Shown in pieces: positions 3,217 to 64,000 of a stretch of DNA of 64,000 nucleotides. How positions within the stretch are numbered: the first letter of the stretch is position 1; each line of letters starts with the position of its first letter. Both the position numbers and the translations under genes were made by a program. Below the pieces are notes generated by a model. The model was not told where the DNA came from. It saw nothing but the letters and a program-made list of their open reading frames with translations, and did no database searches. The DNA comes from an uncultured Gammaproteobacteria bacterium. Lineage in GTDB: Bacteria; Patescibacteriota; Patescibacteriia; UBA9934. The stretch spans positions 10,126 through 74,125 of the forward strand of contig CAYFMS010000001.1 in the NCBI GenBank assembly GCA_964344415.1, read 5' to 3'.

Positions 3217-3582
3217 ATTTTAGTTACGGATAGATGAGAAAAGTTAGAAAAGCAAGTAAAGTTAGTAAAATCGAAGAAAGAGACAAAAGAGATTTATGAG
3301 ATTGGAGAGATTCTAGTCGCAATTTGAACAGATCCTTCGACAGGCTCAGGATTTCAAATAATGTTACCCTCTTCCTGTCATTTCGACTAAGGCCGAAGGC
3401 CGCATGGAGAAATCTACTTAATGCGTAGAAGTTAAGAGGGAGAGTAAAGTTAGTAAGGTCGGAGAAAGAGACAAAAGAGATTTAGGAGATTTATTAGCTT
3501 GTAGGTTAGACTACACCCTACACCCTACTCCCTAAAACCTATACCCTAACGCAGTATACCAATTTTCTGCTAAGATACGGGC
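3217..3582. repeat. Mosaic intergenic repeat cluster A
   Basis: Two ~48 bp direct repeats at 3256..3306 and 3444..3491 (gtaaagttagtaa..tcg.agaaagagacaaaagagattta.gagatt). It shares module M3 (gagattggagagattctagtcgcaa) with 26955..26995 and module M4 (agatccttcgacaggctcaggatttc) with 8272..8300 and 26993..27020. A poly-pyrimidine ccctacaccctactccctaaaaccctataccc tract sits at 3505..3560. Confidence 0.7.
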
Positions 3583-4302
3583 ATGAATGAACAGCAATCA
3601 TCAGGATTTCTCCTTATCGATAAACCAGCCGGAATGACATCACATGATGTTGTTGATCGACTTCGACGCATTACCGGAATACGAAAAATTGGCCATGCTG
3701 GCACACTCGACCCTTTTGCGACGGGGCTTCTTATTCTTGCCATCGGACGATCGGCCACAAAGCGTATTCAAGAATTTGTGAAGCTTGATAAAGTCTATGA
3801 AGCAACATTTGTAATTGGCGCTACGACGGAAACGCTCGATACGGAATCTGAAATTGAAATAGATGAGCATTTTAAAGCTCCCTCGCAAGAACAGGTCGAG
3901 CAAACAGTAAAGACATTCATTGGGAAGCAAAAGCAGATTCCTCCAAAATATTCCGCTATCAAGAAAAATGGAAAAAAGATGTATGAACTCGCTCGAGCCG
4001 GTAAAGAAATCGAAATTGAACCAAGAGATATAGAAATTTTTGATTTTCAGCTTATTGGTGAAATGCACAAAACAGATATCGGCCTTAAAATTCCTGTCAG
4101 TATTCATGTGTCTTCTGGCACCTATATTCGAAGTGTTGCATTCGATCTTGGAAATAAGCTCGGCACGACAGGATATGTGAATCGCTTGCGACGCATTAGC
4201 ATCGGCGACCATCATGTGAAAGATGCGTATCAACTTGATAAGCTGTCTTCAGAGAATTGGATTGATTTTGTTCTTGATGATCCAAACTTACAACATAGCT
4301 GA
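3583..4302 (+). CDS. truB: tRNA pseudouridine(55) synthase
   Basis: 239 aa; GHAGTLDPFATGLLILAIG catalytic Asp motif of the TruB family. Confidence 0.9.
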   Translation: MNEQQSSGFLLIDKPAGMTSHDVVDRLRRITGIRKIGHAGTLDPFATGLLILAIGRSATKRIQEFVKLDKVYEATFVIGATTETLDTESEIEIDEHFKAPSQEQVEQTVKTFIGKQKQIPPKYSAIKKNGKKMYELARAGKEIEIEPRDIEIFDFQLIGEMHKTDIGLKIPVSIHVSSGTYIRSVAFDLGNKLGTTGYVNRLRRISIGDHHVKDAYQLDKLSSENWIDFVLDDPNLQHS

Positions 4303-4341
4303 ACTTATGGTAGTTTTACATGTCGTGACACGGAGGGAGTA

Positions 4342-4686
4342 ATGACAAAAACAGTTCCTTTGCTTGACTGGCTAATGATGCTAAAGCGTCAATTGGGCCC
4401 ACATCTTCGACAGGAAATTCTGGAGACAATCGGAATTTCCATTACTACTGGATACAACCCGGACGGGTCGATGCATTTCACTCTCAACGCGGAAGGTGTC
4501 AAGCAGCTTCGTGAGGCCTCGGAAGTATTCGGAATTGAGGCCCCTTTGACTGGCATCAATCAAGCACTCAAGCTCTACTACGTACTCTCAGATCTCGTCA
4601 AGGAGCATGGGGACGACCTGTACGTCCGCATAGGCCGCTGGGGAGAGTTGAAGAAGCTGGTACTCACACGCCGCAAAACAAAATAA
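4342..4686 (+). CDS. Hypothetical protein, compositionally atypical (GC ~52%)
   Basis: 114 aa ORF with a strong SD (GGAGGG, 6 nt spacer), followed by a rho-independent terminator; no recognisable motif. Confidence 0.5.
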   Translation: MTKTVPLLDWLMMLKRQLGPHLRQEILETIGISITTGYNPDGSMHFTLNAEGVKQLREASEVFGIEAPLTGINQALKLYYVLSDLVKEHGDDLYVRIGRWGELKKLVLTRRKTK

Positions 4687-4693
4687 TCACCGT

Positions 4694-4717
4694 ATCGGCC
4701 ATCGGCCGATTTTTTTA
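4694..4717 (+). terminator. Rho-independent terminator
   Basis: atcggcc-atc-ggccgat hairpin followed by T7. Confidence 0.7.
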
Positions 4718-4846
4718 TTGACGCGCTCATGCAGGGCTGATACCGTGTTTATATAAGTTGTAAACGGCTGGATTTGTGCGAACCTTGGCGGATCGGTTGA
4801 TATGAAAATGACTTTAATTTTGTTCGCGCGAACAGCACTTTAGTAT

Positions 4847-6370
4847 ATGAATAGTATTATATTTGGCCTGCTTGGCCTTGTTCTCGGAGGAATTGCCGGT
4901 TTTTTTATTCGAAAAGCTTTTGCAGCAAAACGTACAGCGGAGGCTGAGCAACGAGCAGAAAAACTTCTGAGTGATGCTCGGGCGGAAGAAAAGAACATGA
5001 TCCTTGAAGCAAAGGAACAGGCGCTTAAAATATCGGAAGAAGCTCGAAAAGAAGAAGAACAAATTCGATCTGAAATCAAACAAGCACAGCAGCGCATTGA
5101 AGAAAGAGAGCAGCGATTTGAAGATCGACTTCTCTCGCTTGAAGAAGACAGAAAAACAGTTGAGCATGATAAAAAGGAGCTCGAGGATCGCATGCAAGAA
5201 GTGCGCGCCATTCGAGAAGAATCTGTTTCAAAATTACAGGAAGTAGCTGGACTATCCAAAGAACAGGCGCTCGATCATTTATTGAAAGAAATCGAGCAGG
5301 ATAAGCAGGAAGTACTTATTGGACAACTTCGAAAACTAGATCAAATGAATGAGGAAGAAATTGAAGCAAAGGCTCGCAAAATTCTATCTCTTGCTATTCA
5401 ACGATTTGCATCAAGTCATGTCGTTGACGCAACAACCACACTTGTCGAGCTCCCATCCGATGACATGAAAGGGCGCATTATCGGAAAAGAAGGCCGCAAT
5501 ATTAAAGCGCTCGAACACTTAACAGGATGTGAAGTTATTATTGATGACACGCCAGGAATTGCCACCATCAGTGGCTTCTCCCCTGTTCGAAGGCAAATTG
5601 CAAAACATGCACTCGAGAAATTGATGAAAGATGGCCGCATTCAGCCGGCGCGCATCGAGGAGGCAGTGAATGAAGCAAAAAGAGACCTTGCCAAAGAAAT
5701 GAAAAAAGCTGGTGAAGATGCTCTATTTGAACTTGGCATTCCCGTTCCATCCATTGATCCAAAACTTGTTTCTATTCTTGGAAGACTAAAATTCAGAACA
5801 AGTTATGGTCAGAATGTTTTACAGCACTCCATCGAGGTAGCACGTATTTCTGGAATGATTGCTGAGGAATTAGGAGCTGATGTGTTTAATTGTAAAAAAG
5901 GAGGATTATTCCACGATATCGGAAAAGCGGTTGATCATGACATGCAAGGTGCTCATCCTGAGATTGGATACAATATCATGAAGAAATTTGGATTCCCTGA
6001 AGAGCTTTGCTATCAGTCCATTGCACATCATGAAGATAAACCGCGCACAATTGAGGGAGTGATTGTAAAGGCTGCTGATGCCATTTCTGGAGCGCGCCCA
6101 GGAGCAAGACGCAATAGCGTTGAGGAATACTTGCAACGATTACAAGCACTTGAAGATACGGCTACTGAATTTGCCGGAGTTGAGAAAGCATATGCCATTC
6201 AGGCGGGCCGCGAAGTTCGCGTATTCGTCACACCGCAGGAAGTTGATGATTATGGCGCATATAAACTCGCAAATCAGATTGCAAAGAAGATTGAAAATGA
6301 CTTAACCTATCCGGGCGAAGTCAAGGTGACGATTATACGCGAAACTCGCATCAGTGAGGTTGCAAGATAG
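4847..6370 (+). CDS. rny: Ribonuclease Y
   Basis: 507 aa; N-terminal TM helix, coiled-coil region, KH domain, HD domain (FHDIGKA...HHED). Confidence 0.9.
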   Translation: MNSIIFGLLGLVLGGIAGFFIRKAFAAKRTAEAEQRAEKLLSDARAEEKNMILEAKEQALKISEEARKEEEQIRSEIKQAQQRIEEREQRFEDRLLSLEEDRKTVEHDKKELEDRMQEVRAIREESVSKLQEVAGLSKEQALDHLLKEIEQDKQEVLIGQLRKLDQMNEEEIEAKARKILSLAIQRFASSHVVDATTTLVELPSDDMKGRIIGKEGRNIKALEHLTGCEVIIDDTPGIATISGFSPVRRQIAKHALEKLMKDGRIQPARIEEAVNEAKRDLAKEMKKAGEDALFELGIPVPSIDPKLVSILGRLKFRTSYGQNVLQHSIEVARISGMIAEELGADVFNCKKGGLFHDIGKAVDHDMQGAHPEIGYNIMKKFGFPEELCYQSIAHHEDKPRTIEGVIVKAADAISGARPGARRNSVEEYLQRLQALEDTATEFAGVEKAYAIQAGREVRVFVTPQEVDDYGAYKLANQIAKKIENDLTYPGEVKVTIIRETRISEVAR

Positions 6371-8120: not shown

Positions 8121-8354
8121 GGCTGCAGTTTAGCAGAGATTTTCAATGGGGTGTAGGGGTGGAACGCCGTTACTAATTTACGGATGGTACAGATATACGG
8201 ATTTAGGTGCGAAGGAGATAAAAGAGATTTATGAGGTTGTAGGTTTTAGGTTGTAGCTTGTAGGCGTAGAAAGATCCTTCGACAGGCTCAGGATTTCGAA
8301 TGCGGTCGCGCAGTGAGCTTGGAAAGGTTGAACCTATTGCAGGCTCACAAGCGA
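8121..8354. repeat. Mosaic intergenic repeat cluster B
   Basis: Contains M2 (tacagatatacggatttaggtgcgaaggaga), M1 (gtaggttttaggttgtagcttgtagg), M4 (agatccttcgacaggctcaggatttcgaatgcggtcgcgcagtga) and a terminal hairpin cacaagcgac + T-run also seen at 13956..13972. Confidence 0.7.
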
Positions 8355-9521
8355 CTATTTTTTATGCAATAAGGCTGCAAACCATGTCGCAATCGGTACG
8401 GTAAGTACAAGTGCAGCCGTTCCCGCAAGCGTCCGGACAATTTCTTCCGCAATAAGCTCATCGTTCACAAAACGGATAATGCCCACCTCTTGCGTCATAA
8501 GAAAGAGTAAGAAAAGAGGCATTGCAACACCTGCATAGGCAAGTACCAGTGTATTCACTGTTGATGCAATATGATGCCGACCAATACGCATGGCACTTTT
8601 GAACAACTCCTTTTGATTCAATTTTTTATTTGCACCATGCAATTCCTCCACCGTTTCACTTTGTGTTATTGCAATGTCATCAAGTACACCGACAGCACCC
8701 AGAATGAATCCCGCTAGCAAAATTCCACTCGGAACTTGAACAAGATTAGACTGGAAATAGAGCAGTATCGCCTCTTCTGATGCAAAGCCCGATAAACGAC
8801 CGATAGAAACAAAGGCATGAGAAAAGATGACTGCAAGTACTAATCCGCAAAGTGTCGCCCCATATGAAACAAATGTACGCTTATTGAATCCATGCGATAA
8901 ATGCATATTAATAGCCAAAATCACAACCGATCCAATGACGGTCGCGAGCACCGGGTCCATCCCCTTTAATATTTGCGGAAAAATAAATCCAAATAATACA
9001 AGAATGGTAAGTCCAAGACCGATAAGTGCAGAAAGACCGCGTATCCGTCCTACAGCAATGATGAGTGCGGAAAATATAGCAAGTAACCACAATAATCCCC
9101 CCGTTCTCACAACGTCAACAAGAAATACTTGCACTATTTCACCATCTTGCAAGATGACTTGGAGATATACTTGATCTCCTTCTTCGATATCGTAACGAAG
9201 TCCTTCTAGAAAAGATTGTTGGGTGTCAACGGTATATTCCTGCCCATCAGCAACCGCGGTGAAAATGACATGTCGATTTCCGTCTATTTCAATCTCACTG
9301 ACAATTTCCGTAATCTCCGCCTTTACCTCGACTGTTTCAACGACTGGCAATTCCGAATCCTGCTGAGCAGAATCAATTGAGCGTTGCAAATCCTGAATCT
9401 CATTTTGTAATTCCTGCAATTCCTCTAAATCGCTCTCAAATAAAAAGTCGCTTTCTGTTTGAGCCAATGCCGGGGTGAAAATGACAAAGCTAAGAAGAAA
9501 TAATAAAAGTATCCATCTCAT
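8355..9521 (-). CDS. Multi-pass membrane protein with N-terminal signal peptide and extracytoplasmic domain (YibE/F-like)
   Basis: 388 aa; signal peptide MRWILLLFLLSFVIFTPALAQ, ~130 aa soluble domain, then ~8 TM helices; the YibE/F-like call rests on architecture alone. Confidence 0.4.
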   Translation of the reverse strand: MRWILLLFLLSFVIFTPALAQTESDFLFESDLEELQELQNEIQDLQRSIDSAQQDSELPVVETVEVKAEITEIVSEIEIDGNRHVIFTAVADGQEYTVDTQQSFLEGLRYDIEEGDQVYLQVILQDGEIVQVFLVDVVRTGGLLWLLAIFSALIIAVGRIRGLSALIGLGLTILVLFGFIFPQILKGMDPVLATVIGSVVILAINMHLSHGFNKRTFVSYGATLCGLVLAVIFSHAFVSIGRLSGFASEEAILLYFQSNLVQVPSGILLAGFILGAVGVLDDIAITQSETVEELHGANKKLNQKELFKSAMRIGRHHIASTVNTLVLAYAGVAMPLFLLFLMTQEVGIIRFVNDELIAEEIVRTLAGTAALVLTVPIATWFAALLHKK

Positions 9522-12619: not shown

Positions 12620-13303
12620 ATGACGAATTATCTGAAATCATTTTTGTTTCTTGGCGGCCTTCTTCTTATTGGTGCCGGTTGTTTTCAATCAGCGGATCAA
12701 ATCGAACCGCTTGCCAGTGGAGAAACCGAGACAGCAAATGACACCCCTGTTCTTATCCATGAATTAACTGATGGCTCATATTCCATGAATGAAGAAAGCT
12801 CTGTACGATGGACCGGATATGGAATTGGAAAATCTCATACAGGAACATTTGATATTTCAGAGGGCGCATTCACTGTTACAGATGGGATGATTTCTGATTT
12901 TTCTGTCACTATCGATACGACAAGCTTCACAAGCGACGATATACAAAATCCTAGTTTGCGCGAAGGATTCGACAATCACTTGAAGTCAGCCGATTTTCTT
13001 GATGTTGAGAGCTTTGCAACCGCTCAGGGAATTTTGTCAGGAGATATCAATAATGTGAATGATAATACATATTCATATTCCATGGACCTCACGATTAAAG
13101 GCGAAACTGAATCTGTTCAAGGTGAATTTGATGTAGAAAGCGCTGATGATAGTGCAATCACGCTCAGCAGCTCGATAGCTATTGATCGTACCGTCTGGGG
13201 AATCACATCTCGAAGCAGTAATTTCTTCGATAATTTAGGTGATGAGCTCATCGAAGACAATGTCGACCTTGAATTCTCTCTCGATCTTTCACGTGTTGAA
13301 TAG
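12620..13303 (+). CDS. Lipoprotein with YceI-like domain
   Basis: Signal plus lipobox LIGAGC; SSVRWTGYGIGKSHTGTFD resembles the start of a YceI beta-barrel. Confidence 0.45.
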   Translation: MTNYLKSFLFLGGLLLIGAGCFQSADQIEPLASGETETANDTPVLIHELTDGSYSMNEESSVRWTGYGIGKSHTGTFDISEGAFTVTDGMISDFSVTIDTTSFTSDDIQNPSLREGFDNHLKSADFLDVESFATAQGILSGDINNVNDNTYSYSMDLTIKGETESVQGEFDVESADDSAITLSSSIAIDRTVWGITSRSSNFFDNLGDELIEDNVDLEFSLDLSRVE

Positions 13304-14025
13304 TTGCTGAGTAATGCAGTTGACTCGGTATCTGTTTATGTTTCGTAAACCAGGATACCGTGTCATCCCGGACGGAGCGAAGCGGAGATCCGGCCTGCCT
13401 GCCGGCAGGCAGGGAACCATCGCCAAGTGCCATCCCGAGCCCTGCCTGCCGGTAGGCATGGATCTCTTGTTTTCATCTTACTTTTCTTTAAAGAAAAGTA
13501 AGCAAAAGAACGCCGCCAGTGCTCGCTTTGTCACATGCATAAAGCGTCATCGCTCGGGCAAAACAGAGAGTAGGAATGTCTTTATTTTTCTTAATACAGT
13601 GGTGCGTTCATTCCTATCGGCTGTTTTGCAATTCCTCGCTCTTGCCGCATGCAATGTGACAGTCTCGCAGGTGGCAGCAGTTTCGGAAATGAAGGATATA
13701 AGGTAAATATTGGTCGCTTGTGAGTTGGATGATATTTCGTTGAAGTTTGAGTAGCGGAATGAGCCGTACTGGAATGTACGGTGAATGAGCAGTAAGTAGA
13801 CGAGAGGCTCATTCGTGTGGATCCCAAATTTAATTTGGGATTTCGAACGCGGTCGCGAAGTGAATGAGATGCTATTTCGGTGAAGATCGAGCACACGCAG
13901 TAAGGCGCACTGAAAGGTGCGACGTCGAGTAGCGCAGATCTGAGCCGGAAGAGCGCTCATTCACAAGCGACTTTTTTGATTTATTTACTTTCTTTATGGT
14001 TAAATAAAACTGAAAGGAGGTCGCG
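13304..14025. repeat. Mosaic intergenic repeat cluster D
   Basis: Perfect palindromes ctgcctgccggcaggcag (13395) and cttacttttctttaaagaaaagtaag (13470). The segment 13440..13690 is an inverted copy of 27000..27250. Two degenerate ~85 bp tandem units lie at 13720..13800 and 13860..13945. An 11 bp long-range stem gtcgcttgtga (13712) pairs with tcacaagcgac (13956), followed by T6. Confidence 0.75.
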
Positions 14026-25806: not shown

Positions 25807-26844
25807 CTAAAAACCTAAATTTGGATTCGCCTTTAATGAAAGTGGGTCTGTAAAATGATGTTGACGCGCTCTAAAATATCCAGCTGCCGCAATCATTGCT
25901 GCATTATCAAGCGTATAGGCAAAATCCGGCTGAGCGAATTTCACATCAAGAGATTTCATCTGCTTTTTCATCCGATTGCGCAATTCAATATTCGCGGAAA
26001 CACCTCCAGCAATAACAACCGTTTTTGCATTATACGTTTTCAGAGCACGCATTGTTTTTCGTACAAGAACATCTACAACAGCTTCTTGAAATGATGCTGC
26101 AATATCGGATCGAAATGACGGATCGTCCATTTGATCCTCATGCTTGCGAAGTGTGTAGAGTACCGAGGTTTTTAAGCCAGAAAAACTAAAATCAAGATTC
26201 GGGCGATCAAGTAAACCTCGTGGAAAATCAAAAGCCTGCGCATCGCCGCTTTTTGCTAGCTTTGCTATTTCGGGACCACCCGGATAAGGCAGTCCAAGCA
26301 TTTTTGCAACTTTATCGAATGCCTCGCCTGCGGCATCGTCGAGTGTTTCTCCGATCCGTTCAAATACACCATGATCCTTCATGAGAACTAATTCTGTATG
26401 TCCGCCCGACACCAAAAGTGCAAGCAGTGGAAGCTCTGGCGGTTTTGAATCCAACCAATTGGCATAAATATGCCCTTCAAGATGCGAAACGGGAATGAGA
26501 GGCTTTTCCCATGACCATGCAAGCGTTTTCGCGACCTCTACACCCGTTCGAAGTGCCGGCGACAGTCCGGGACCCGCTGTAACCGCAATGGCATCTATGC
26601 CCCTTCCCTTTGGATTCACATGCTTTTGCAAAAGTGGAAATATTTTTTCGAGATGCTGTCTTGCCGCGATTTCAGGTACAACACCTCCATGCTCGGCATG
26701 AATGTCGGCCTGCGAAAAAATAACCGATTTTTTCACCTTTAATCGGTCACTTTTTGCGCGGATAATGGCAATTGCCGTTTCATCGCAACTTGTTTCAATT
26801 CCTAATATATTCACGCGCTTATTCTGCCTTAAAGTGATGGACAC
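25807..26844 (-). CDS. tsaD: tRNA N6-adenosine threonylcarbamoyltransferase TsaD (Kae1/YgjD family)
   Basis: ILGIETSCDETAIAI N-terminal motif and HLEGH metal site. Confidence 0.9.
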   Translation of the reverse strand: MSITLRQNKRVNILGIETSCDETAIAIIRAKSDRLKVKKSVIFSQADIHAEHGGVVPEIAARQHLEKIFPLLQKHVNPKGRGIDAIAVTAGPGLSPALRTGVEVAKTLAWSWEKPLIPVSHLEGHIYANWLDSKPPELPLLALLVSGGHTELVLMKDHGVFERIGETLDDAAGEAFDKVAKMLGLPYPGGPEIAKLAKSGDAQAFDFPRGLLDRPNLDFSFSGLKTSVLYTLRKHEDQMDDPSFRSDIAASFQEAVVDVLVRKTMRALKTYNAKTVVIAGGVSANIELRNRMKKQMKSLDVKFAQPDFAYTLDNAAMIAAAGYFRARQHHFTDPLSLKANPNLGF

Positions 26845-27310
26845 AGCAAGTCATATGCCGAGTGCAAAGTAAGTAGCTGGTAGGTTTTAGGTTGTAGCTT
26901 GTAGGGTTGCCGTTACAGATTTATGAATAGTACAGATATACGGATTTAGGTGCGAAGGAGATTTAGGAGATTGGAGAGATTCTAGTCGCAAAAAGATCCT
27001 TCGACAGGCTCAGGATTTCGATGTCCGAAACTGCCGCCACCTGTGAGACTGTCACACTGCATGCGGCAAGAGCGAGGAATTGCAAAACAGCCGATAGGAA
27101 TGAACGCATCATTGCATTAAGAAAAATAAAGACATTTCTACTCTCTGTTTTGCCTGAGCGATGACGCTTATGCATGTGACAAAGCGAGCACTGGCGGCGT
27201 TCTTTTGCTTACTTTTCTTTAAAGAAAAGTAAGAAGAAAAAACAAGAGATCTTTCCCGACTTCGCTCTGTGAGCTACGGCGGACAGGCGTATTCACTCGA
27301 GATGACGGAA
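26845..27310. repeat. Mosaic intergenic repeat cluster C
   Basis: Modules M1, M2, M3, M4 in the same order as cluster B, followed by the ~250 bp segment (27000..27250) that is the reverse complement of 13440..13690 at ~90% identity, including the aaagaaaagtaag palindrome. Confidence 0.75.
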
Positions 27311-27378
27311 TGAAGAACCACAATCGTGAGGTGAGAATGTTGACTTTTCTTGTGGCACACCTTAATGTTTCGACAGTT

Positions 27379-29591: not shown

Positions 29592-29612
29592 TGACTGCGC
29601 TATAATGCATGC

Positions 29613-30737
29613 ATGCGCATTGGAATTGATGCAAGATTTTATGGACCGCGTGTCGGTGGAGGAGGTATTGGGCGATATACCCAGCAACTCGTCGATCATT
29701 TGCAGACCATTGATCAAGAACATGATTATGTCCTCTTTCTAAAAAAGGACAATTTTCATGAATGTAAAATCACCAATCCTCGCTTTGAAAAAGTCATGGC
29801 CGATGTTCACTGGTATGGATTGAAGGAACAAATAGTCATGCCGCGACTGATTCGCCGATCGCGCGTCGACTTTATTCATATTCCCCATTGGAATGTCCCG
29901 CTTTTTTGTCCCGTTCCATTTTTAACAACGATTCATGATCTTATTTTGATTGAAGATCGGCATAGTGCGCGTTCAAGTACAAGAAATCCTCTACTACATG
30001 GATTTAAATATGCCGGATTCCGCACCATTCTCGAAACGGCCATTCATGCGAGTAAACATATTTTTACTGTTTCACAGTTTAGTAAGCAGGCAATCCTGAA
30101 ACACTTTGGGATTAAGACGGATAAAATCACCGTTACATATAATGGAATTCTTCCCCTGCCTGCCAGTCGATCGGTCCGCCTGCGCGATATGGGTGTATAT
30201 GAACCGTATTATTTATATGTCGGTAATGCGTATCCGCATAAGAATTTAGAAATGATGATCGAGGCATTTTCCGTTTTTGCTCTCGCGCATCCGCATACGC
30301 AACTCGTGATTGCAGGAAGAAGAGATGTTTTCTCAAGAAAACTTGAAATGCATGCTCAAAAATTAGGCATCGATCCACATCGTATTATTTTTGTTGATCT
30401 CCCAAGTGATGAACAGATTAGCGCGCTCTATAAACATGCAGAATTGTTCATTTTTCCATCTCGACTTGAAGGTTTTGGCATGCCTCCGCTTGAAGCTTTG
30501 CAATGCGGGACACCGGCTGCTATTTCAAGCGCCGGACCACTTCCTGAAATTGTTGGCGACCTTGCAGAATATTTCGACCCAGATGACATGCGAAGACTTG
30601 CTGAAATTATGCTACTACGAGCCAAAAAACCAGATCTTTTTGCTGTTGATAGCCACAAGGTAAAGAATAAGCTTTCATTGTATAATTGGAAGGACATGGC
30701 CGCAAAGACCCTCGAGGTCTATAAGACATTTCGTTAG
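29613..30737 (+). CDS. Glycosyltransferase family 4 (GT4), leaderless start
   Basis: EGFGMPPLEALQCGTPAAIS motif; TATAAT lies 6 nt upstream of the ATG. Confidence 0.75.
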   Translation: MRIGIDARFYGPRVGGGGIGRYTQQLVDHLQTIDQEHDYVLFLKKDNFHECKITNPRFEKVMADVHWYGLKEQIVMPRLIRRSRVDFIHIPHWNVPLFCPVPFLTTIHDLILIEDRHSARSSTRNPLLHGFKYAGFRTILETAIHASKHIFTVSQFSKQAILKHFGIKTDKITVTYNGILPLPASRSVRLRDMGVYEPYYLYVGNAYPHKNLEMMIEAFSVFALAHPHTQLVIAGRRDVFSRKLEMHAQKLGIDPHRIIFVDLPSDEQISALYKHAELFIFPSRLEGFGMPPLEALQCGTPAAISSAGPLPEIVGDLAEYFDPDDMRRLAEIMLLRAKKPDLFAVDSHKVKNKLSLYNWKDMAAKTLEVYKTFR

Positions 30738-36618: not shown

Positions 36619-36719
36619 ATACTCAATATTATAATGCAGGTTCGTCCTCTTAGCGAATATACCAACTTTCAATATGGCGCGCGCTCCCTACTTACTATTT
36701 ACTACTAGCTACTTACCGG

Positions 36720-45431: not shown

Positions 45432-45487
45432 GAATTGCCTACAAAAAGAATCCCACAAGGGATTCTTTTTTATTTGCGCTATAATGC

Positions 45488-46399
45488 ATGCATATGCCCG
45501 AGATTCGCGCCATACCTACCCTGACACAAGAGAAGCTTCTTAAACTTGAAAGCCGTGCAAATGATATTCGCAAGGATCTTATTGAGATGCTGACGAAGGC
45601 GAAAAGTGGCCATACCGCCGGTCCTCTTGGCCTTGCGGATATTTTTACTGCCCTCTACTTTCATGTGCTTGAATATGATGCGAAAAAGCCTGATTGGGAT
45701 ATGCGGGACAGACTTCTTCTTTCATGCGGACATGTCGTCCCCATTCAATATGTTTTGATGGCACATGCGGGGTACTTTCCAAAAAAAGAACTCGATACCC
45801 TGCGGAAACTTGGATCGCGACTGCAAGGTCACCCAGAAATAACGCATCTTCCCGGTATTGAAAATACATCTGGACCACTTGGTGATGGCTCACCCCAATC
45901 TGCCGGCCTCGCATATATCGCTAAAAAAGAAGACCTGCCTTGGCATACCTATTGCATTATGTCCGACGGCGAATTAGAGGCAGGTATTACATGGGAAGCG
46001 GCAATGTTTGCGGGGAAAAATAAGCTTCATAACCTCACATGGATTATTGATCGCAATAATATTCAAATCGATGGATACACAGAAGACATCATGCCGCTTG
46101 AACCACTTCATGATAAATTTGCAGGTTTTAATTTTGAAGTTGTTGAAATCAATGGTCACAATATCCGAGAATTTGTCGATGCATGCAGTTATGCGAAAAG
46201 TGTTTGGGATAAGCCGGTTGTAATTATTGCACATACCATTCCAGGAAAAGGAGTGGATTTCATGGAAGGAGATTTTAAATGGCATGGATCCCCTCCTGGA
46301 AAAGGCCCTGAAGACAAAGTGAAAAAAGAAGAGCAAATGAAAGAAGCTCTCAAAGAATTACGAACACTGGGCGGCTGCATAACATCTGAATGTGAATAA
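45488..46399 (+). CDS. Transketolase, N-terminal (TPP-binding) subunit
   Basis: GHTAGPLGLADIFTALYF...LSCGHVV; leaderless, likely translated from the second ATG (45494). Confidence 0.85.
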   Translation: MHMPEIRAIPTLTQEKLLKLESRANDIRKDLIEMLTKAKSGHTAGPLGLADIFTALYFHVLEYDAKKPDWDMRDRLLLSCGHVVPIQYVLMAHAGYFPKKELDTLRKLGSRLQGHPEITHLPGIENTSGPLGDGSPQSAGLAYIAKKEDLPWHTYCIMSDGELEAGITWEAAMFAGKNKLHNLTWIIDRNNIQIDGYTEDIMPLEPLHDKFAGFNFEVVEINGHNIREFVDACSYAKSVWDKPVVIIAHTIPGKGVDFMEGDFKWHGSPPGKGPEDKVKKEEQMKEALKELRTLGGCITSECE

Positions 46400-50504: not shown

Positions 50505-50560
50505 AATTTACACCCCCAAACGCTACCCCCTACCCCCTAGCTACGTTATAATGCAATCAT

Positions 50561-56100: not shown

Positions 56101-56192
56101 ATCTACATCTTATCCATAAACAAAAAACCACCGCAAGTAGCGATGGTGAGTGCGGGCATTACTGCCAGAAAGTTCGCGAGGGCGATTCAGGT

Positions 56193-57756: not shown

Positions 57757-57850
57757 GGATCTACTCCTCCATTCATGTGATTAACCGTCTAATCACTCAA
57801 CCTAAAATAATACTAACATAAGCGCAACAAAAAACCACCGCAAGTAGCGA

Positions 57851-57927
57851 TGGATTTTTGGTGGACCCTACCGGAGTCGAACCGGTGACCTCCTCGGTGC
57901 AAACGAGGCGCTCTAGCCAGCTGAGCT
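57851..57927 (-). tRNA. tRNA-Ala (anticodon TGC)
   Basis: 77 nt: acceptor GGGCCCT/AGGGTCC with the G3:U70 Ala identity pair, anticodon loop ttTGCac, T-arm GGTTCGACTCC, encoded CCA. Confidence 0.9.
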
Positions 57928-60865: not shown

Positions 60866-60975
60866 TTCCGGCGCCCACCTACTCTCGCCATTCTTGACTA
60901 CCATCGGCCCTTAAGGCTTAACTGCCGTGTTCGGGATGGGAACGGGTGTGACCCTCAAGGAAATGGCACCGAAAC
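60866..60975 (-). rRNA. rrf: 5S rRNA
   Basis: Minus strand GGTCACACCCGTTCCCATCCCGAACACGGCAGTTAAGCC...GCCGATGGTAGT core of 5S. Confidence 0.85.
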
Positions 60976-61169
60976 ATTACTGACTTTTTTCTGATCTACT
61001 AAATATCAATTATACGAGGCAAATATTCCTCTTCTCATTTATCGAGAAAAGTGAGTGGAGAGCTGGACAATTAGTACTACTCAGCTGAACACGTTACCGT
61101 GCTTACACTTGTAGCCTATCAACCAGATAGTCTCTCTGGAGTCTCATAACGAAGATTAATCTTGGAATC

Positions 61170-61202
<33 letters not shown>

Positions 61203-61325
61203 GAACCGAATGTCGCTACCCAGCAATGCCCTTGGCAGGACAACTGGTACACGAGAGATTCGTTCACCCCGGTCCTCTCGTACTAGGGGCGAGTTTCCTC
61301 AATCTTCAACGCGCGCAGCGGATAG

Positions 61326-61444
<119 letters not shown>

Positions 61445-61983
61445 GAACCTCCCCGTCGCTGTGGACGCTTGGGGGAGACCAGCCTGTTATCCCCGGAGTA
61501 GCTTTTATCCGTTGAGCTTCCGCCGTCCTATATCGAACGGTCGGATCACTAGCTTCTGCTTTCGCAACTGCTCGACATGTCAGTCTTGCAGTAAAGCTGG
61601 CTTATGCGCTTGCACGTCCAGCCCGATTTCCATCCGGGCTAAGCCAACCTTTGTAAACGCCTCCGTTACTTTTTGGGAGGCTACCGCCCCAGTCAAACTA
61701 CCCATCAGATACTGTTCCCGCTGCCGGATTCACGGCTGCAGGTTAGGATTCACATAGTACAAGGGTGGTATCTCACTGATGCCAAGGCTCCCACCTATAC
61801 TGAACATGTAAAACATGAACCCAATATCAAACTGTAGTAAAGCTTCACGGGGTCTTTTCGTCCGGCTGCGCGTAATGAGCATCTTCACTCATATCGCAAT
61901 TTCGCCGAGTACATCGTTGGGACAGTTTGGAAATCGTTATGCCATTCGTGCAGGTCGGAACTCACCCGACAAGGAATTTCGCT

Positions 61984-62710
61984 CATTCTGTTACTTTGTT
62001 ACCTTATTGAGCTGGTAACGGACCAAGCTGAGCTTGGCGGTTCGTCGCGAAACGAACTCTACATGTCGCCATGCAGGTCGGACTATATCTTCATCATAAT
62101 GATGTTTGGCATATAGTCTCTGAGGATTCCAGAAATCTAGATGGAACTTTACGATTCATTCTTTGGATGATTTTCGCGATTTTTATCATTCCAGTCTTTT
62201 CAAGATGCATTCCTTCTTCCATTAAATGGAGGATAGAAACAAAGTTCTCGTAATCAGCTTTTTTGGCTGTCTTTAGAGAATATCTTTCAAAAAAGGGTAT
62301 GATTTTCTGAATAAGATCTTTTCGAGATCTTACACAGTATCGCAACAAATTTTCCTTATGATTATCACGACGGCGATTTTGATAAATCGATCCACACTTG
62401 AAATAATCCTTGATTATTTCGAGTGATTCACGACTCTTTTCACCTTGCGTGACAACAAATTCAGGAAAAATTTGCCATCCGGAACTCGTCGTTTTATTGC
62501 GGATAATACTGACCGAGAAGCAACCTTCTCCGTCAACGAATCCACAAATCCATCCAGCTAATTCTGGCCTTTCCTGCTGATTGTCTGGCTTCCTTTCGGA
62601 AACACCTCGTGGATTTTTACTGGGCATACTATGTGTATAGTTTACCCTAGTACCCGAGGATACTCCAGATGTTCCAGCATATAGCCAAATTTTACTAAGG
62701 CAGCTATTCC
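61984..62710 (-). mobile_element. Group I intron in 23S rRNA (inserted after ...CCTAAGGT, E. coli ~1917 region) carrying a LAGLIDADG homing endonuclease
   Basis: Exon continuity ...GGTCCTAAGGT | intron | AGCGAAATTCCTTGTCGGGT...; the intron ends in G. Confidence 0.8.
62094..62627 (-). CDS. LAGLIDADG homing endonuclease (intron-encoded)
   Basis: LAGWICGFVDGEGCFSV motif; 177 aa, single-motif (homodimeric) type. Confidence 0.8.
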   Translation of the reverse strand: MPSKNPRGVSERKPDNQQERPELAGWICGFVDGEGCFSVSIIRNKTTSSGWQIFPEFVVTQGEKSRESLEIIKDYFKCGSIYQNRRRDNHKENLLRYCVRSRKDLIQKIIPFFERYSLKTAKKADYENFVSILHLMEEGMHLEKTGMIKIAKIIQRMNRKVPSRFLESSETICQTSL

Positions 62711-64000
62711 ACCTTAGGACCGTTATAGTTACGGCCGGCGTTCATCCGCGCTTCGGTCGCAAGCTTCTCTACCGAAGTAGATAACCCGCTTCCTTAACGT
62801 TCGGACACTGGCCAGGCATCAGCCCCTATACATCACCTTACGGTTTAGCAGGGACCTGTGTTTTTGATAAACAGTCGCTTCCAATCCTTAGCTGTGGGTC
62901 TTCTTCTCCCGAAGAAAACCAGGCCTTATCCCGAAGTTACGGCCGCTGTTTTGCCGAGTTCCCTAACGATGTTTCTCTCGTACGCCTTAGTGCTTTAACA
63001 CCCACCTACCTGTGTTGGATTTGGTACGGGCACATAATATCTAATCTTAGAGGCTTTTCTTGGCCCACTTTCCTTTCCTCTCCCTGCACAAAGTGCAAGT
63101 CGCGCTGACCCAGAGTCTGATGACCGGCGGATTTGCCTACCAGTCGACCCCAAGCCCCCAATGTCATAGCCATAGGACACAGGAAATTCAAGCAAGCGTC
63201 CCCTCATCGAAATATTACGTGGTGCAGGAATATTAACCTGCTGTGCATCGGCTACGCCTTTCGGCCTCGTCTTAGCTCCCGACTAACCCACAGACGATTT
63301 ACGTTGCTGTGGAAACCTTAGGTTTTCGGCGGACAGGGTTCTCACCTGTCTTTTTGCTACTCATGCCAACATTCTCTCTTCCCATCGCTCCACCATGCCT
63401 CACGACATGACTTCAGCGCCATGGAAATGCTCTCCTACCGCCCAAAGATTCCGGAGAATCAATGGACCCATAGCTTCGGTGTACTACTTAGCCCCGGTAC
63501 ATTTTCGGTACAAGAAAACTTGACCAGTGAGCTGTTACGCTTTCTTTAAAGGATGGCTGCTTCCAAGCCAACCTCCTGGTTGTATGAGTCTTCTCACCAC
63601 CTTTTACACTTAGTAGTAACTTTGGGACCTTAGCTTATGATCTGGGCTGTTTCCCTTTCGACTAATGGAGCTTCGCCCCCATAGTCTGACTGCCAGGAAC
63701 ACATTGTAGTATTCGGAGTTTGGCTCGGTAGGCTACCCGAAGGCGCCGAACCGAATCAGTGCTCTACCCCCACAATGCTATTAACTGACGCTATGCCTAA
63801 ACATATCTCGGAGAGAACCAGCTATTACCGAACTCGATTGGAATTTCTCCGCTAACCACAGCTCATCCAAGCGTTTTGCACCACGCGGTGGTTCGGGCCT
63901 CCACATGCTTTTACACATGCTTCACCCTGGCCATGGTTAGGTCGTCCGGTTTCGGGTCCTATATGAGCGACAAACGCCCGTTAAGGCTCGCTTTCACTCT

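Follow-up and report, generated by a model that had tools for sequence, protein, structure and literature searches.

Prokaryotic repetitive extragenic palindromic (REP) sequences have been split into a GTAG-tagged and a CGTC-tagged superfamily (Di Nocera, De Gregorio and Rocco, 2013, BMC Genomics 14:522; PMC3733652). CGTC-type REPs have an unpaired tag at one end (CGTC, or TGTC or CCTC), a stem of 8-9 bp whose first two positions are A-T and T-A, a loop of 4-5 nt and a 3-nt tail with the consensus CCA; they are mostly intergenic, mostly arranged as head-to-head dimers, and have no dedicated transposase. The same account places dRS3 of Neisseria and RPE-4 and RPE-6 of Rickettsia in this superfamily, lists five phyla for it without Patescibacteria, and describes the Neisseria intergenic mosaic elements (NIMEs) as large intergenic mosaics of CGTC-type REP hairpins (dRS3) interspersed with longer repeat families (PMC3733652). 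Here, a 64-kb stretch of contig CAYFMS010000001.1 (assembly GCA_964344415.1), from a bacterium of the Patescibacteria or candidate phyla radiation (CPR), is examined for a family of repeats that fills four of its intergenic regions, 3217-3582, 8121-8354, 13304-14025 and 26845-27310 (regions 1 to 4). With a probability of about 0.6, the four regions are non-coding repeat DNA and form a REP-based intergenic mosaic of the kind known from NIMEs and from bacterial interspersed mosaic elements (BIMEs). Its parts are a REP hairpin (module M4); a composite unit of about 115 nt made of modules M2, M3 and M4, with two copies of a B/D type and two of an A type; a microsatellite (module M1); a tail of a hairpin followed by a T-run; and a 230-nt unit that folds as a long hairpin.

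Sequence Data and Analysis

The window is the whole 64-kb stretch; in ENA metagenome assembly ERZ930061, it corresponds to about 684,267-748,266 of contig k127_100043 (768,188 bp), read as the reverse complement. Together with about 8.6 kb of adjoining sequence, about 72 kb of the 768-kb contig were covered. Modules were compared across the window by repeat finding and short-word self-BLAST, and the matches expected by chance were taken from dinucleotide-preserving shuffles. Tandem repeats were called with Tandem Repeats Finder (TRF), and hairpins with a strict hairpin scan and folding energies; membership in an Rfam family required a covariance-model score at or above the gathering cut-off of the family. 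The 22-nt core of M4, GATCCTTCGACAGGCTCAGGAT, was scanned against one genome per GTDB species (596 Gb), where at least 119 stretches matched; its spread over phyla was read from the 80 titles listed among these stretches, and its tags and tails were counted on 136 copies in other genomes. Scans of JGI metagenomes and IMG/VR were for exact matches only. Numbers with the prefix L are labels of compared loci.

Composition of the Repeat Regions

The sequence-only reading had described all four regions as built from the same modules, in a modular fashion resembling BIME and REP elements. The structural part of this reading holds, and the sharing of modules is borne out for regions 1, 2 and 4: M1, M2 and M4 recur as exact 26- to 31-mers, and the M3 core, GAGATTTAKGAGATT, occurs at four sites (3289, 3477, 8224 and 26958). 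Region 3, in turn, contains no M1, M2 or M3 and no intact M4, so that the combination of M1 and M2 (in either order) followed by M3 and M4, which had been given for the clusters called B and C, is true of regions 2 and 4 and not of region 3. The 26-mer of M1 is identical at 8239-8264 and 26880-26905, and the 31-mer of M2 at 8188-8218 and 26931-26961, where the match widens to 54 nt with 91% identity (8166-8219 vs. 26909-26962). Expected matches per module pattern were 0.00-0.04 in the shuffles; all copies of M1-M4 are intergenic, and none lies outside the listed regions in the window or in the additional 8.6 kb.

A four-copy alignment shows that M2, M3 and M4 belong to one composite unit of about 115 nt. 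Region 1 (366 nt) holds two diverged A-type copies, of which the second is shortened; the first shares 49 nt with 3443-3491 at 92% identity and 67 nt with 26958-27019 at 90%. Regions 2 (234 nt) and 4 (466-522 nt, depending on the gene calls) hold copies of the B/D type; in region 2 the tail of M3 is replaced by M1, and in region 4, relative to region 2, M3 lacks about 10 nt between GAGAT direct repeats. Across the gaps, copies are 90-100% identical and the order of the pieces differs. M1 is a heptamer microsatellite (CTACNNN/GTAGNNN), with AGGTTGT or GTAGGTT units in regions 2 and 4 and a degenerate, inverted counterpart of CTACACC units in region 1. Further CTACNNN arrays lie in gaps outside the four regions, at 36688-36716 (CTACTTA x4.1) and 50523-50539 (CTACCCC x2.4), so that M1-like microsatellites are more widespread than the mosaic; a CCCTAC-rich stretch precedes a Mur ligase gene (L138, 19518-19574), and the orientation of these arrays to the downstream gene is not fully consistent. 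Regularly spaced tandem arrays are absent from the four regions, where TRF returned only 7-nt and 9-nt microsatellites; CRISPR arrays and the guide arrays of TIGR-Tas systems were thereby ruled out. M1 was also considered as a GTAG-type REP and rejected, because it contains GTAG words but no palindrome; GTAG-tagged palindromes number about nine distinct ones in the window (16 overlapping rows, vs. 3-12 rows in shuffles), which was judged no more frequent than chance, and none falls within M1 of regions 2 and 4.

The M4 Hairpin and Its Occurrence in Other Genomes

The 26-nt M4 sequence is identical in its three copies (Table 1). Read on the minus strand, it folds as a 21-nt hairpin with two 8-nt arms that begin with AT; the outer part of the stem has five Watson-Crick pairs, positions 6-7 hold a tandem G.A/A.G, a G-C pair closes the loop, and when this closing pair is counted with the stem the loop CCTGT has 5 nt and fits the 4-5-nt loop of CGTC-type REPs. 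The 22-nt core occurs exactly in the at least 119 GTDB stretches against a calculated expectation of about 0.07, and in 8 IMG/VR contigs as well. Among the 80 titles listed, about 12 phyla are represented, cultured isolates included: Pseudomonadota (alpha, beta and gamma), Bacteroidota, Chloroflexota, Acidobacteriota, Verrucomicrobiota, Nitrospirota, Eremiobacterota, Bacillota, Planctomycetota, Gemmatimonadota, Zixibacteria and Patescibacteria. The earlier statement that the repeats are unrelated in sequence to known REP or BIME elements is therefore wrong for M4, whose core is identical to REP-type hairpins in all these loci. The likeness of the other loci to the window ends at 22-29 nt; M1-M3 and region 3 have no counterpart in the M4-core loci of other genomes.

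In the other genomes, the 22-mer is preceded by TGTC in 42, CGTC in 24 and CCTC in 20 of the 136 copies (86 together), and by GCTC in a further 15 of 136; the commonest 3-nt tails of hairpins of this type are CTC and CCC. Since these four tags precede most of the identical copies elsewhere, M4 is classified as a predicted CGTC-type REP, a variant without the usual tag, at the level of the superfamily described in PMC3733652 and not of the numbered families CGTC-1 to CGTC-4. M4 and the CGTC REPs as characterized there have in common a short intergenic palindrome with 8-nt arms starting from AT, a 5-nt loop and a distribution over several phyla; the tag, which occurs on the 86 of 136 identical 22-mers elsewhere and on two other hairpins of the window (3376-3416 and 13361-13393); and head-to-head dimers, occasional copies inside genes and the lack of a linked transposase. 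The differences from that description are the CGAA or TGAA in place of the tag, the tandem G.A mismatch where the stem should be fully paired, the tail, which is not CCA, and the loops of some window hairpins, which are enlarged by nested palindromes. Such a loop, of 18 nt with a nested GGCCGAAGGCC palindrome, is found in the TGTC-tagged hairpin at 3376-3416; this hairpin has the same frame as M4, and its tag end faces that of M4 copy 1 (3332-3352) over 23 nt in the manner of a head-to-head heterodimer. In region 3, the palindrome CCTGCCTGCCGGCAGGCAGG (13394-13413) and a second, imperfect copy lie within or between degenerate hairpins of this type.

In other genomes, 18% of the copies of the M4 core lie inside open reading frames (ORFs), whereas 76% of randomly chosen positions do so; contexts between convergent genes are more numerous than those between divergent genes (25 vs. 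10), and between the two strands of tandem contexts there is no bias (24 vs. 23). Hairpins with the loop frame of M4 and other stems (ATGGT/ACCAT, ATGCT/AGCAT, GTCCT/AGGAC etc.) exceed their frequency in shuffles about 25-fold. Among instances chosen only for their loop motif, complementarity spans exactly five flanking positions, which covary, with Watson-Crick pairing of 45-59% compared to 11-47% in a shifted control; set against the 8-9-bp stem of CGTC REPs, the 8-nt arms of M4 fit in their AT start, have G.A and A.G at positions 6-7, and covary only in the outer five positions. Within the Patescibacteria, locus L021 has a hairpin of the M4 type preceded by CGAA, and locus L080 has canonical CGTC tags. 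M4-type hairpins from 18 other loci had no match in Rfam. A metagenome-assembled genome of the Gemmatimonadales (L051, about 3700-5740) contains a tandem array in which a unit of about 97 nt that includes an M4-type hairpin is repeated; six copies are exact and twelve more have one mismatch, and both orientations occur.

It is extremely unlikely that there is no repeat family at all and that the pattern arose by chance, from a few local duplications and the growth of microsatellites in slack intergenic DNA, with the occurrence of M4 in other bacteria a coincidence. Only 2-4 copies are known per lineage-specific module, and no such module was found outside the source contig, as this explanation would have it; yet the 22-mer occurs in at least 119 loci against an expectation of about 0.07, these loci share tag and hairpin layout, and the copies in the window are 5-19 kb apart in four separate gaps, with their order rearranged. 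The sequence-only reading had also proposed that modules confined to these four places would favor local duplication over a mobile or regulatory family. On this point the modules divide: M4 is very widespread, while M2 and a 21-mer of the 230-nt unit have no exact match in JGI metagenomes or IMG/VR, M1 has none in IMG/VR (JGI metagenomes were not scanned for M1), and none of the three was found in related loci or in the additional 8.6 kb of the contig.

The unchanged 22-mer in about 12 phyla and in viral contigs, the constant loop frame GAGC-N-GTCGA with covarying stems, and a 22-nt interruption of a coding sequence in Methylorubrum (see below) are the basis of a more far-reaching and doubtful interpretation: either a unit of about 22-25 nt would still be moving within and between phyla, by a mechanism as yet unknown, no transposase being known for CGTC REPs, or a universal host factor would recognize the hairpin. 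If so, the CPR mosaic would represent a landing place where such units seed longer, lineage-specific repeats. In coding-looking sequence, the M4 core was observed at L067, L071, L078, L081 and L116, always between ...TC and GAGG...; at L067 (Methylorubrum subtropicum, 4454-4475), it splits the conserved motif ...YSPDFNLI | EEVFAKLK... of an IS630-like transposase ORF and shifts the frame. The Methylorubrum case would be in keeping with a roughly 22-nt unit having been inserted, perhaps along with a duplication of GA. An intact allele of this ORF was sought in plasmids; the sole close copy is cut at the same place by an element of the IS110 family, which leaves no empty site for comparison.

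The M4 core (e.g., 8273-8294), read as GATCCT, a 6-nt insertion TCGACA in the loop of the terminal hairpin and GGCTCAGGATGA, resembles the 5' end of many bacterial 16S rRNAs, GATCCTGGCTCAGGATGA, in the region of primer 27F. Mimicry of the 16S 5' end was treated as a probable coincidence because other members of the hairpin family have different stems; no 16S sequence was present in the compared loci.

Region 3, the 230-nt Unit and the Tail Module

Region 3 (722 nt) is connected to regions 2 and 4 by two other elements. With region 2 it shares a 26-nt tail, GGATTTCGAAYGCGGTCGCGMAGTGA (8291-8316 vs. 13838-13863, 92%), followed in both regions by a variable long hairpin, TCACAAGCGAC and a T-run. 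With region 4 it shares, in inverted orientation and at 95% identity, the 230-nt element (13461-13690 vs. 27021-27251), which was not part of the sequence-only description. The 230-nt unit begins with a perfect 26-nt palindrome (CTTACTTTTCTTTAAAGAAAAGTAAG) and continues as a long imperfect hairpin of about 170 nt. REP-type sequence is aligned on both sides of both copies: M4 copy 3 abuts the copy in region 4, and at the exact place of this complete M4, region 3 has only GAAGGAT, the right arm, which is therefore regarded as the remnant of an 18-nt deletion. The degenerate remnant on the other flank in region 4 (27246-27274) has a loop of the TCGACTTCGCTC type, a variant that occurs in other genomes.

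Table 1. Positions of repeat units and hairpins within the 64-kb window.
Feature	Position	Strand	Sequence or property	Basis
Unit A1: C-poor left part and M3	3241..3322	+	GAGACAAAAGAGATTTATGAGATTGGAGAGATTCTAGTCGCAA	Direct-repeat family D1; four-copy alignment
M4 copy 1	3330..3355	-	TGAA-ATCCTGAG-CCTGT-CGAAGGAT-CTG	Exact 26-mer; hairpin scan
TGTC-tagged REP-like hairpin	3376..3416	+	TGTC ATTTCGAC ... GGAGAAAT CTA	Hairpin scan; fold -10.6 kcal/mol
Unit A2: second A-type left part and M3 head, shortened, then M1 tail	3429..3505	+	M1 tail AGCTTGTAGG	Repeat finding; self-BLAST; alignment
Heptamer array, M1-like, reversed	3511..3548	+	CTACACC x5.4	TRF; inverted repeats I3 and I6 vs. M1; motif-cluster scan
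M2 with 5' extension	8166..8218	+	5' extension GCCGTTAC	Exact 31-mer; 54 nt 91% to 26909-26962
M3 head, stops at M1 start	8215..8238	+	GAGATAAAAGAGATTTATGAGGTT	Self-BLAST; alignment
M1 array, GTAGGTT-type	8234..8264	+	AGGTTGT x4.4	TRF; exact 26-mer
M4 copy 2	8272..8297	-	CGAA-ATCCTGAG-CCTGT-CGAAGGAT-CTT	Exact 26-mer; hairpin scan
Tail module	8291..8362	+	GGATTTCGAATGCGGTCGCGCAGTGA, hairpin GTCGCGCAGTGAGC...GCTCACAAGCGAC, TATTTTTT	26 nt 92% to 13838-13863; fold
Degenerate REP-like hairpins	within 13361..13466	+	TGTC ATCCCGGAC... (13361-13393); GCC ATCCCGAG...ATGGAT CTC (13429-13466)	Sequence; self-BLAST palindromes
230-nt unit copy 1	13461..13690	+		95% to reverse complement of 27021-27251; fold z-scores -3.1, -4.8
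Right arm of M4-type REP	13691..13697	+	GAAGGAT	Alignment columns 254-286
Highly structured stretch	13712..13977	+		Fold -107.8 kcal/mol, z-score -6.5; no Rfam match
M1 array	26880..26905	+	GTAGGTT x3.7	TRF; exact 26-mer
M2 directly followed by M3	26909..26991	+		Self-BLAST; alignment; exact 31-mer
M4 copy 3, abuts 230-nt unit	26994..27019	-		Alignment; hairpin scan; exact 26-mer
230-nt unit copy 2, inverted	27021..27251	-		Repeat finding; self-BLAST; alignment
Degenerate REP-like remnant, other flank of 230-nt unit	27246..27274	+	GAGATCTTTCCCGACTTCGCTCTGTGAGC	Sequence; alignment

Arrangements of this kind invite comparison with miniature inverted-repeat transposable elements (MITEs), and MITE-like mobile DNA had been among the initial suggestions. 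Like the repeats described here, MITEs such as Correia/NEMIS, RUP and Nezha are small non-coding repeats near genes, some of which fold as long hairpins; and near-identical copies of the units stand at unrelated intergenic sites, the 230-nt unit in both orientations and with a long-hairpin fold, as insertions that relatives lack. In a classical MITE, however, the units of about 115 and 230 nt would have been moved by a DDE transposase acting on terminal inverted repeats, with duplication of the target site. In the 230-nt unit, the end GATCTCTTG... is not repeated in inverted form at the other end, ...GTTTCGGAAAT, and the flanks differ between copies and show no target-site duplication; the composite unit of about 115 nt likewise has neither terminal inverted repeats nor target-site duplications. 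Regions 3 and 4 stay similar beyond the 230-nt unit, in the REP remnants to either side, as in segmental copying; no transposase or integrase domain is present among the Pfam-annotated genes in about 72 kb; and the 21-mer of the 230-nt unit went unmatched in the metagenome and virus collections. A classical MITE thus finds no support and is very unlikely.

The REP-based mosaic finds its closest analogue in the NIMEs of Neisseria. As in NIMEs, the 230-nt unit is bracketed by REP-type sequence in both copies, and the M2-M3 segment precedes a REP; the sequences and sizes of the units differ, and far fewer copies are known here. In the window, dRS3 itself (ATTCCC-N8-GGGAAT) is absent when scanned with at most one mismatch. 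NIMEs are linked to phage integration and to neighboring surface-protein genes; nothing in the window points to either. Enterobacterial BIMEs resemble the mosaic in that a REP hairpin and short named motifs are combined in variable ways between genes, and differ in their GTAG-tagged palindromes and in the absence of sequence similarity. Literature searches with hairpin sequence strings and peptide translations returned primer coincidences only; the mosaic is new in its lineage, in that none was reported in the literature searched, whereas this kind of repeat has been described before.

The 3' half of region 3 contains the only strong fold among the regions. Within the stretch 13712-13977, GGTCGCTTGTGA at 13712-13723 is an exact inverted repeat of 13961-13971; a variant hairpin, GGATCCCAAATTTAATTTGGGATT (in 13819-13847), is followed by the tail GGATTTCGAACGCGGTCGCGAAGTGA (13838-13863), and the long hairpin is closed by TCACAAGCGAC (13961-13971) and followed by TTTTTT. 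The YceI-like coding sequence contains a third exact copy of the 11-mer TCACAAGCGAC (12927-12937), which precedes the structured part of region 3 by about 0.8 kb. The fold is one reason to consider a small or structured RNA family on the plus strand, with M2-M3-M4 as its body and the GTCGCG...CGAC hairpin and T-run as intrinsic terminator. All copies of M1-M4 are on the plus strand, where regions 2 and 3 both finish with a long hairpin and a T-run and 13690-13980 folds with a z-score of -6.5; in the plus-strand version, the M4 stem and its region-3 variant, which keeps the outer stem and differs in the interior, each gain a G.U pair, and GGA and GGAG words abound in the C-poor modules. An RNA family is nevertheless unlikely. 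No Rfam family reached its threshold at the four regions and nothing was credible at permissive E-values, the top candidate being Clostridiales-2 with 19.9 bits against a cut-off of 58.6; no sigma-70-like promoter was found inside the repeats; and the order of modules is not constant among copies. Region 2 (8150-8362) folds no better than shuffled sequence (z-score -1.8), its T-run lies inside the end of the YibE/F-like coding sequence, in that the 3' end of the tail module overlaps the stop codon of this minus-strand gene, and the M4 22-mer of other genomes has no strand bias to its flanking genes. Together with the absence of the sequences from syntenic relatives, these results leave the conserved small-RNA family of the sequence-only reading unsupported.

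Gene Neighborhood and Comparison with Relatives

The repeats stand between housekeeping genes, namely truB, proS, a YibE/F-like gene, a YceI-like gene, tsaD and a GT4 glycosyltransferase gene. Homologues of the prolyl-tRNA synthetase (ProRS) put the window in Patescibacteria, the named matches being from Paceibacteria-like groups. The gene order around proS is kept in relatives. Between the YibE/F-like gene and proS lie 234 nt in this genome, about 160 nt in the relative whose ProRS is 85% identical and only 12 nt in those where ProRS identity is about 70%; the gap between truB and its neighbor measures 366 nt here and 48 nt in the 85% relative, and the relatives at about 70% are not comparable in this respect since an extra gene occupies the gap. 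M1-M4 are absent from the syntenic relatives compared. Because the gaps are shorter in relatives and M1-M4 are absent there, the mosaics are considered lineage-specific insertions and not conserved functional sequence; the comparison shows the patches to have been inserted in the source lineage, into gaps that are short in relatives. In its gap between the YibE/F-like gene and proS, the 85% relative has its own hairpin of the M4 subfamily (AGTC ATTTCGAG..CGAGAAAT CTT) and a CTAC-rich stretch. Elsewhere in this relative (L122, 1942-2641), a 700-nt gap after the RNase III gene holds tRNA genes and the repeated words AGGTTCAACCT and AAAAAACTACCGCTTTCACGATAGTCTTTTGGTGCGGCGTGAGGGATTCG (twice), so that the 85% relative has repeat families of its own, unlike those of the window.

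In many genes of the window, a TGnTAnnnT box precedes the ATG by 6-8 nt and a Shine-Dalgarno sequence is lacking; the repeats therefore start just upstream of apparent leaderless promoters. The motif TGCGCTATAATGCATGCAT(G) recurs at 29596-29614, 45475-45493 and 50542-50560 and upstream of many genes, and together with the box it suggests that leaderless mRNAs transcribed from predicted extended -10 promoters are widespread in the source genome. In this setting, the repeats could be promoter-proximal regulatory DNA: the protein-binding arrays suggested by the sequence-only reading would then be bound by a transcription factor or nucleoid protein, with truB, proS, tsaD and the glycosyltransferase operon under its joint control. 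Regions 1 and 4 lie between divergent genes and region 2 upstream of proS; the repeats begin just upstream of the apparent promoters; upstream of truB, proS, tsaD and PfkB-family and Mur ligase genes, the coding strand of the CTAC arrays shows CCTAC; and the CTAC-rich stretch of the 85% relative is at the same place upstream of proS. The distance to start codons ranges, however, from 35 to 145 nt (the heptamer array of region 1 is 35-72 nt upstream of the truB ATG, and the M1 array of region 4 is 36-61 nt upstream of the longest tsaD ORF start), and the array at 36688-36716 is opposite in orientation to its downstream gene, which contradicts a general rule that these arrays read CCTAC on the coding strand. 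The modules are not conserved in relatives, of which those at 70% have only the 12 nt upstream of proS; the flanking genes have no common pathway, and no candidate binding protein was identified. A regulatory array is thus quite unlikely.

Public gene calls place two minus-strand ORFs inside the repeats, of 137 aa at 13547-13960 and of 70 aa at 26963-27175; neither has a Pfam match, and both are probably spurious. The same calls start tsaD at 26814 and the glycosyltransferase gene at 27337, which gives region 4 a gap of 522 nt. Elsewhere in the window, an identical 28-mer, AACAAAAAACCACCGCAAGTAGCGATGG, at 56119-56146 and 57826-57853 forms a minus-strand hairpin followed by a T-run, with one copy adjoining a tRNA-Ala gene; the pair is a putative duplicated terminator-like element. 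The 23S rRNA gene (61051-64000, minus strand) has 2950 nt over 2258 model positions and an insertion of about 700 nt with a LAGLIDADG homing-endonuclease ORF (62094-62627, minus strand), which suggests an intron. A 5S gene lies at 60866-60973, and beyond the 23S gene a SPOUT methyltransferase gene and no 16S gene was found; the rRNA genes are thus unlinked.

Origin of the Mosaic and Implications

The REP-based mosaic may have formed when composite units were copied from gap to gap, through ectopic recombination or gene conversion, or through an enzyme acting in trans at REP hairpins. Replication slippage would then have reshaped the copies, by expansion of heptamers, by deletion between the GAGAT repeats of M3 and by the 18-nt deletion in the REP of region 3. 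The mosaics may be mainly selfish or neutral DNA; side effects could include a greater distance between the leaderless-type promoters of truB, proS and tsaD and the DNA upstream of them, and providing hairpin/T-run terminators on the plus strand.

As a caveat, several observations weigh against the identification as a REP-based mosaic. The 8-nt arms of M4 form only six Watson-Crick pairs, and the hairpin alone reaches -4 to -5 kcal/mol; the three copies in the window are preceded by CGAA, CGAA and TGAA and not by CGTC, TGTC or CCTC, and their tails are CTT, CTT and CTG and not the CCA consensus. Divergent genes, between which REPs are least frequent, flank two of the three M4 copies, and the plus-strand location of all M1-M4 copies, together with the two T-run tails, would also fit transcription units. 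Only 3-4 copies per module are known, within about 72 kb of the 768-kb contig, and since M1 (in IMG/VR) and M2 and the 230-nt unit (in both collections) are without a match, these modules could amount to a few local duplications. Finally, mobility of the repeats is inferred.

CPR or Patescibacteria genomes are small and are regarded as repeat-poor. By enlarging three gaps to 234-722 nt, and the fourth to 466-522 nt, the mosaic brings the REP phenomenon to this lineage. For annotation, the spurious ORF calls over the repeats are a practical point. Beyond the source genome, a subfamily of CGTC-type hairpins with a tandem G.A is present in many more phyla than the five listed in 2013 (PMC3733652); and with identical 22-mers to follow across phyla, the question of how REPs without a transposase spread becomes a more tractable one.

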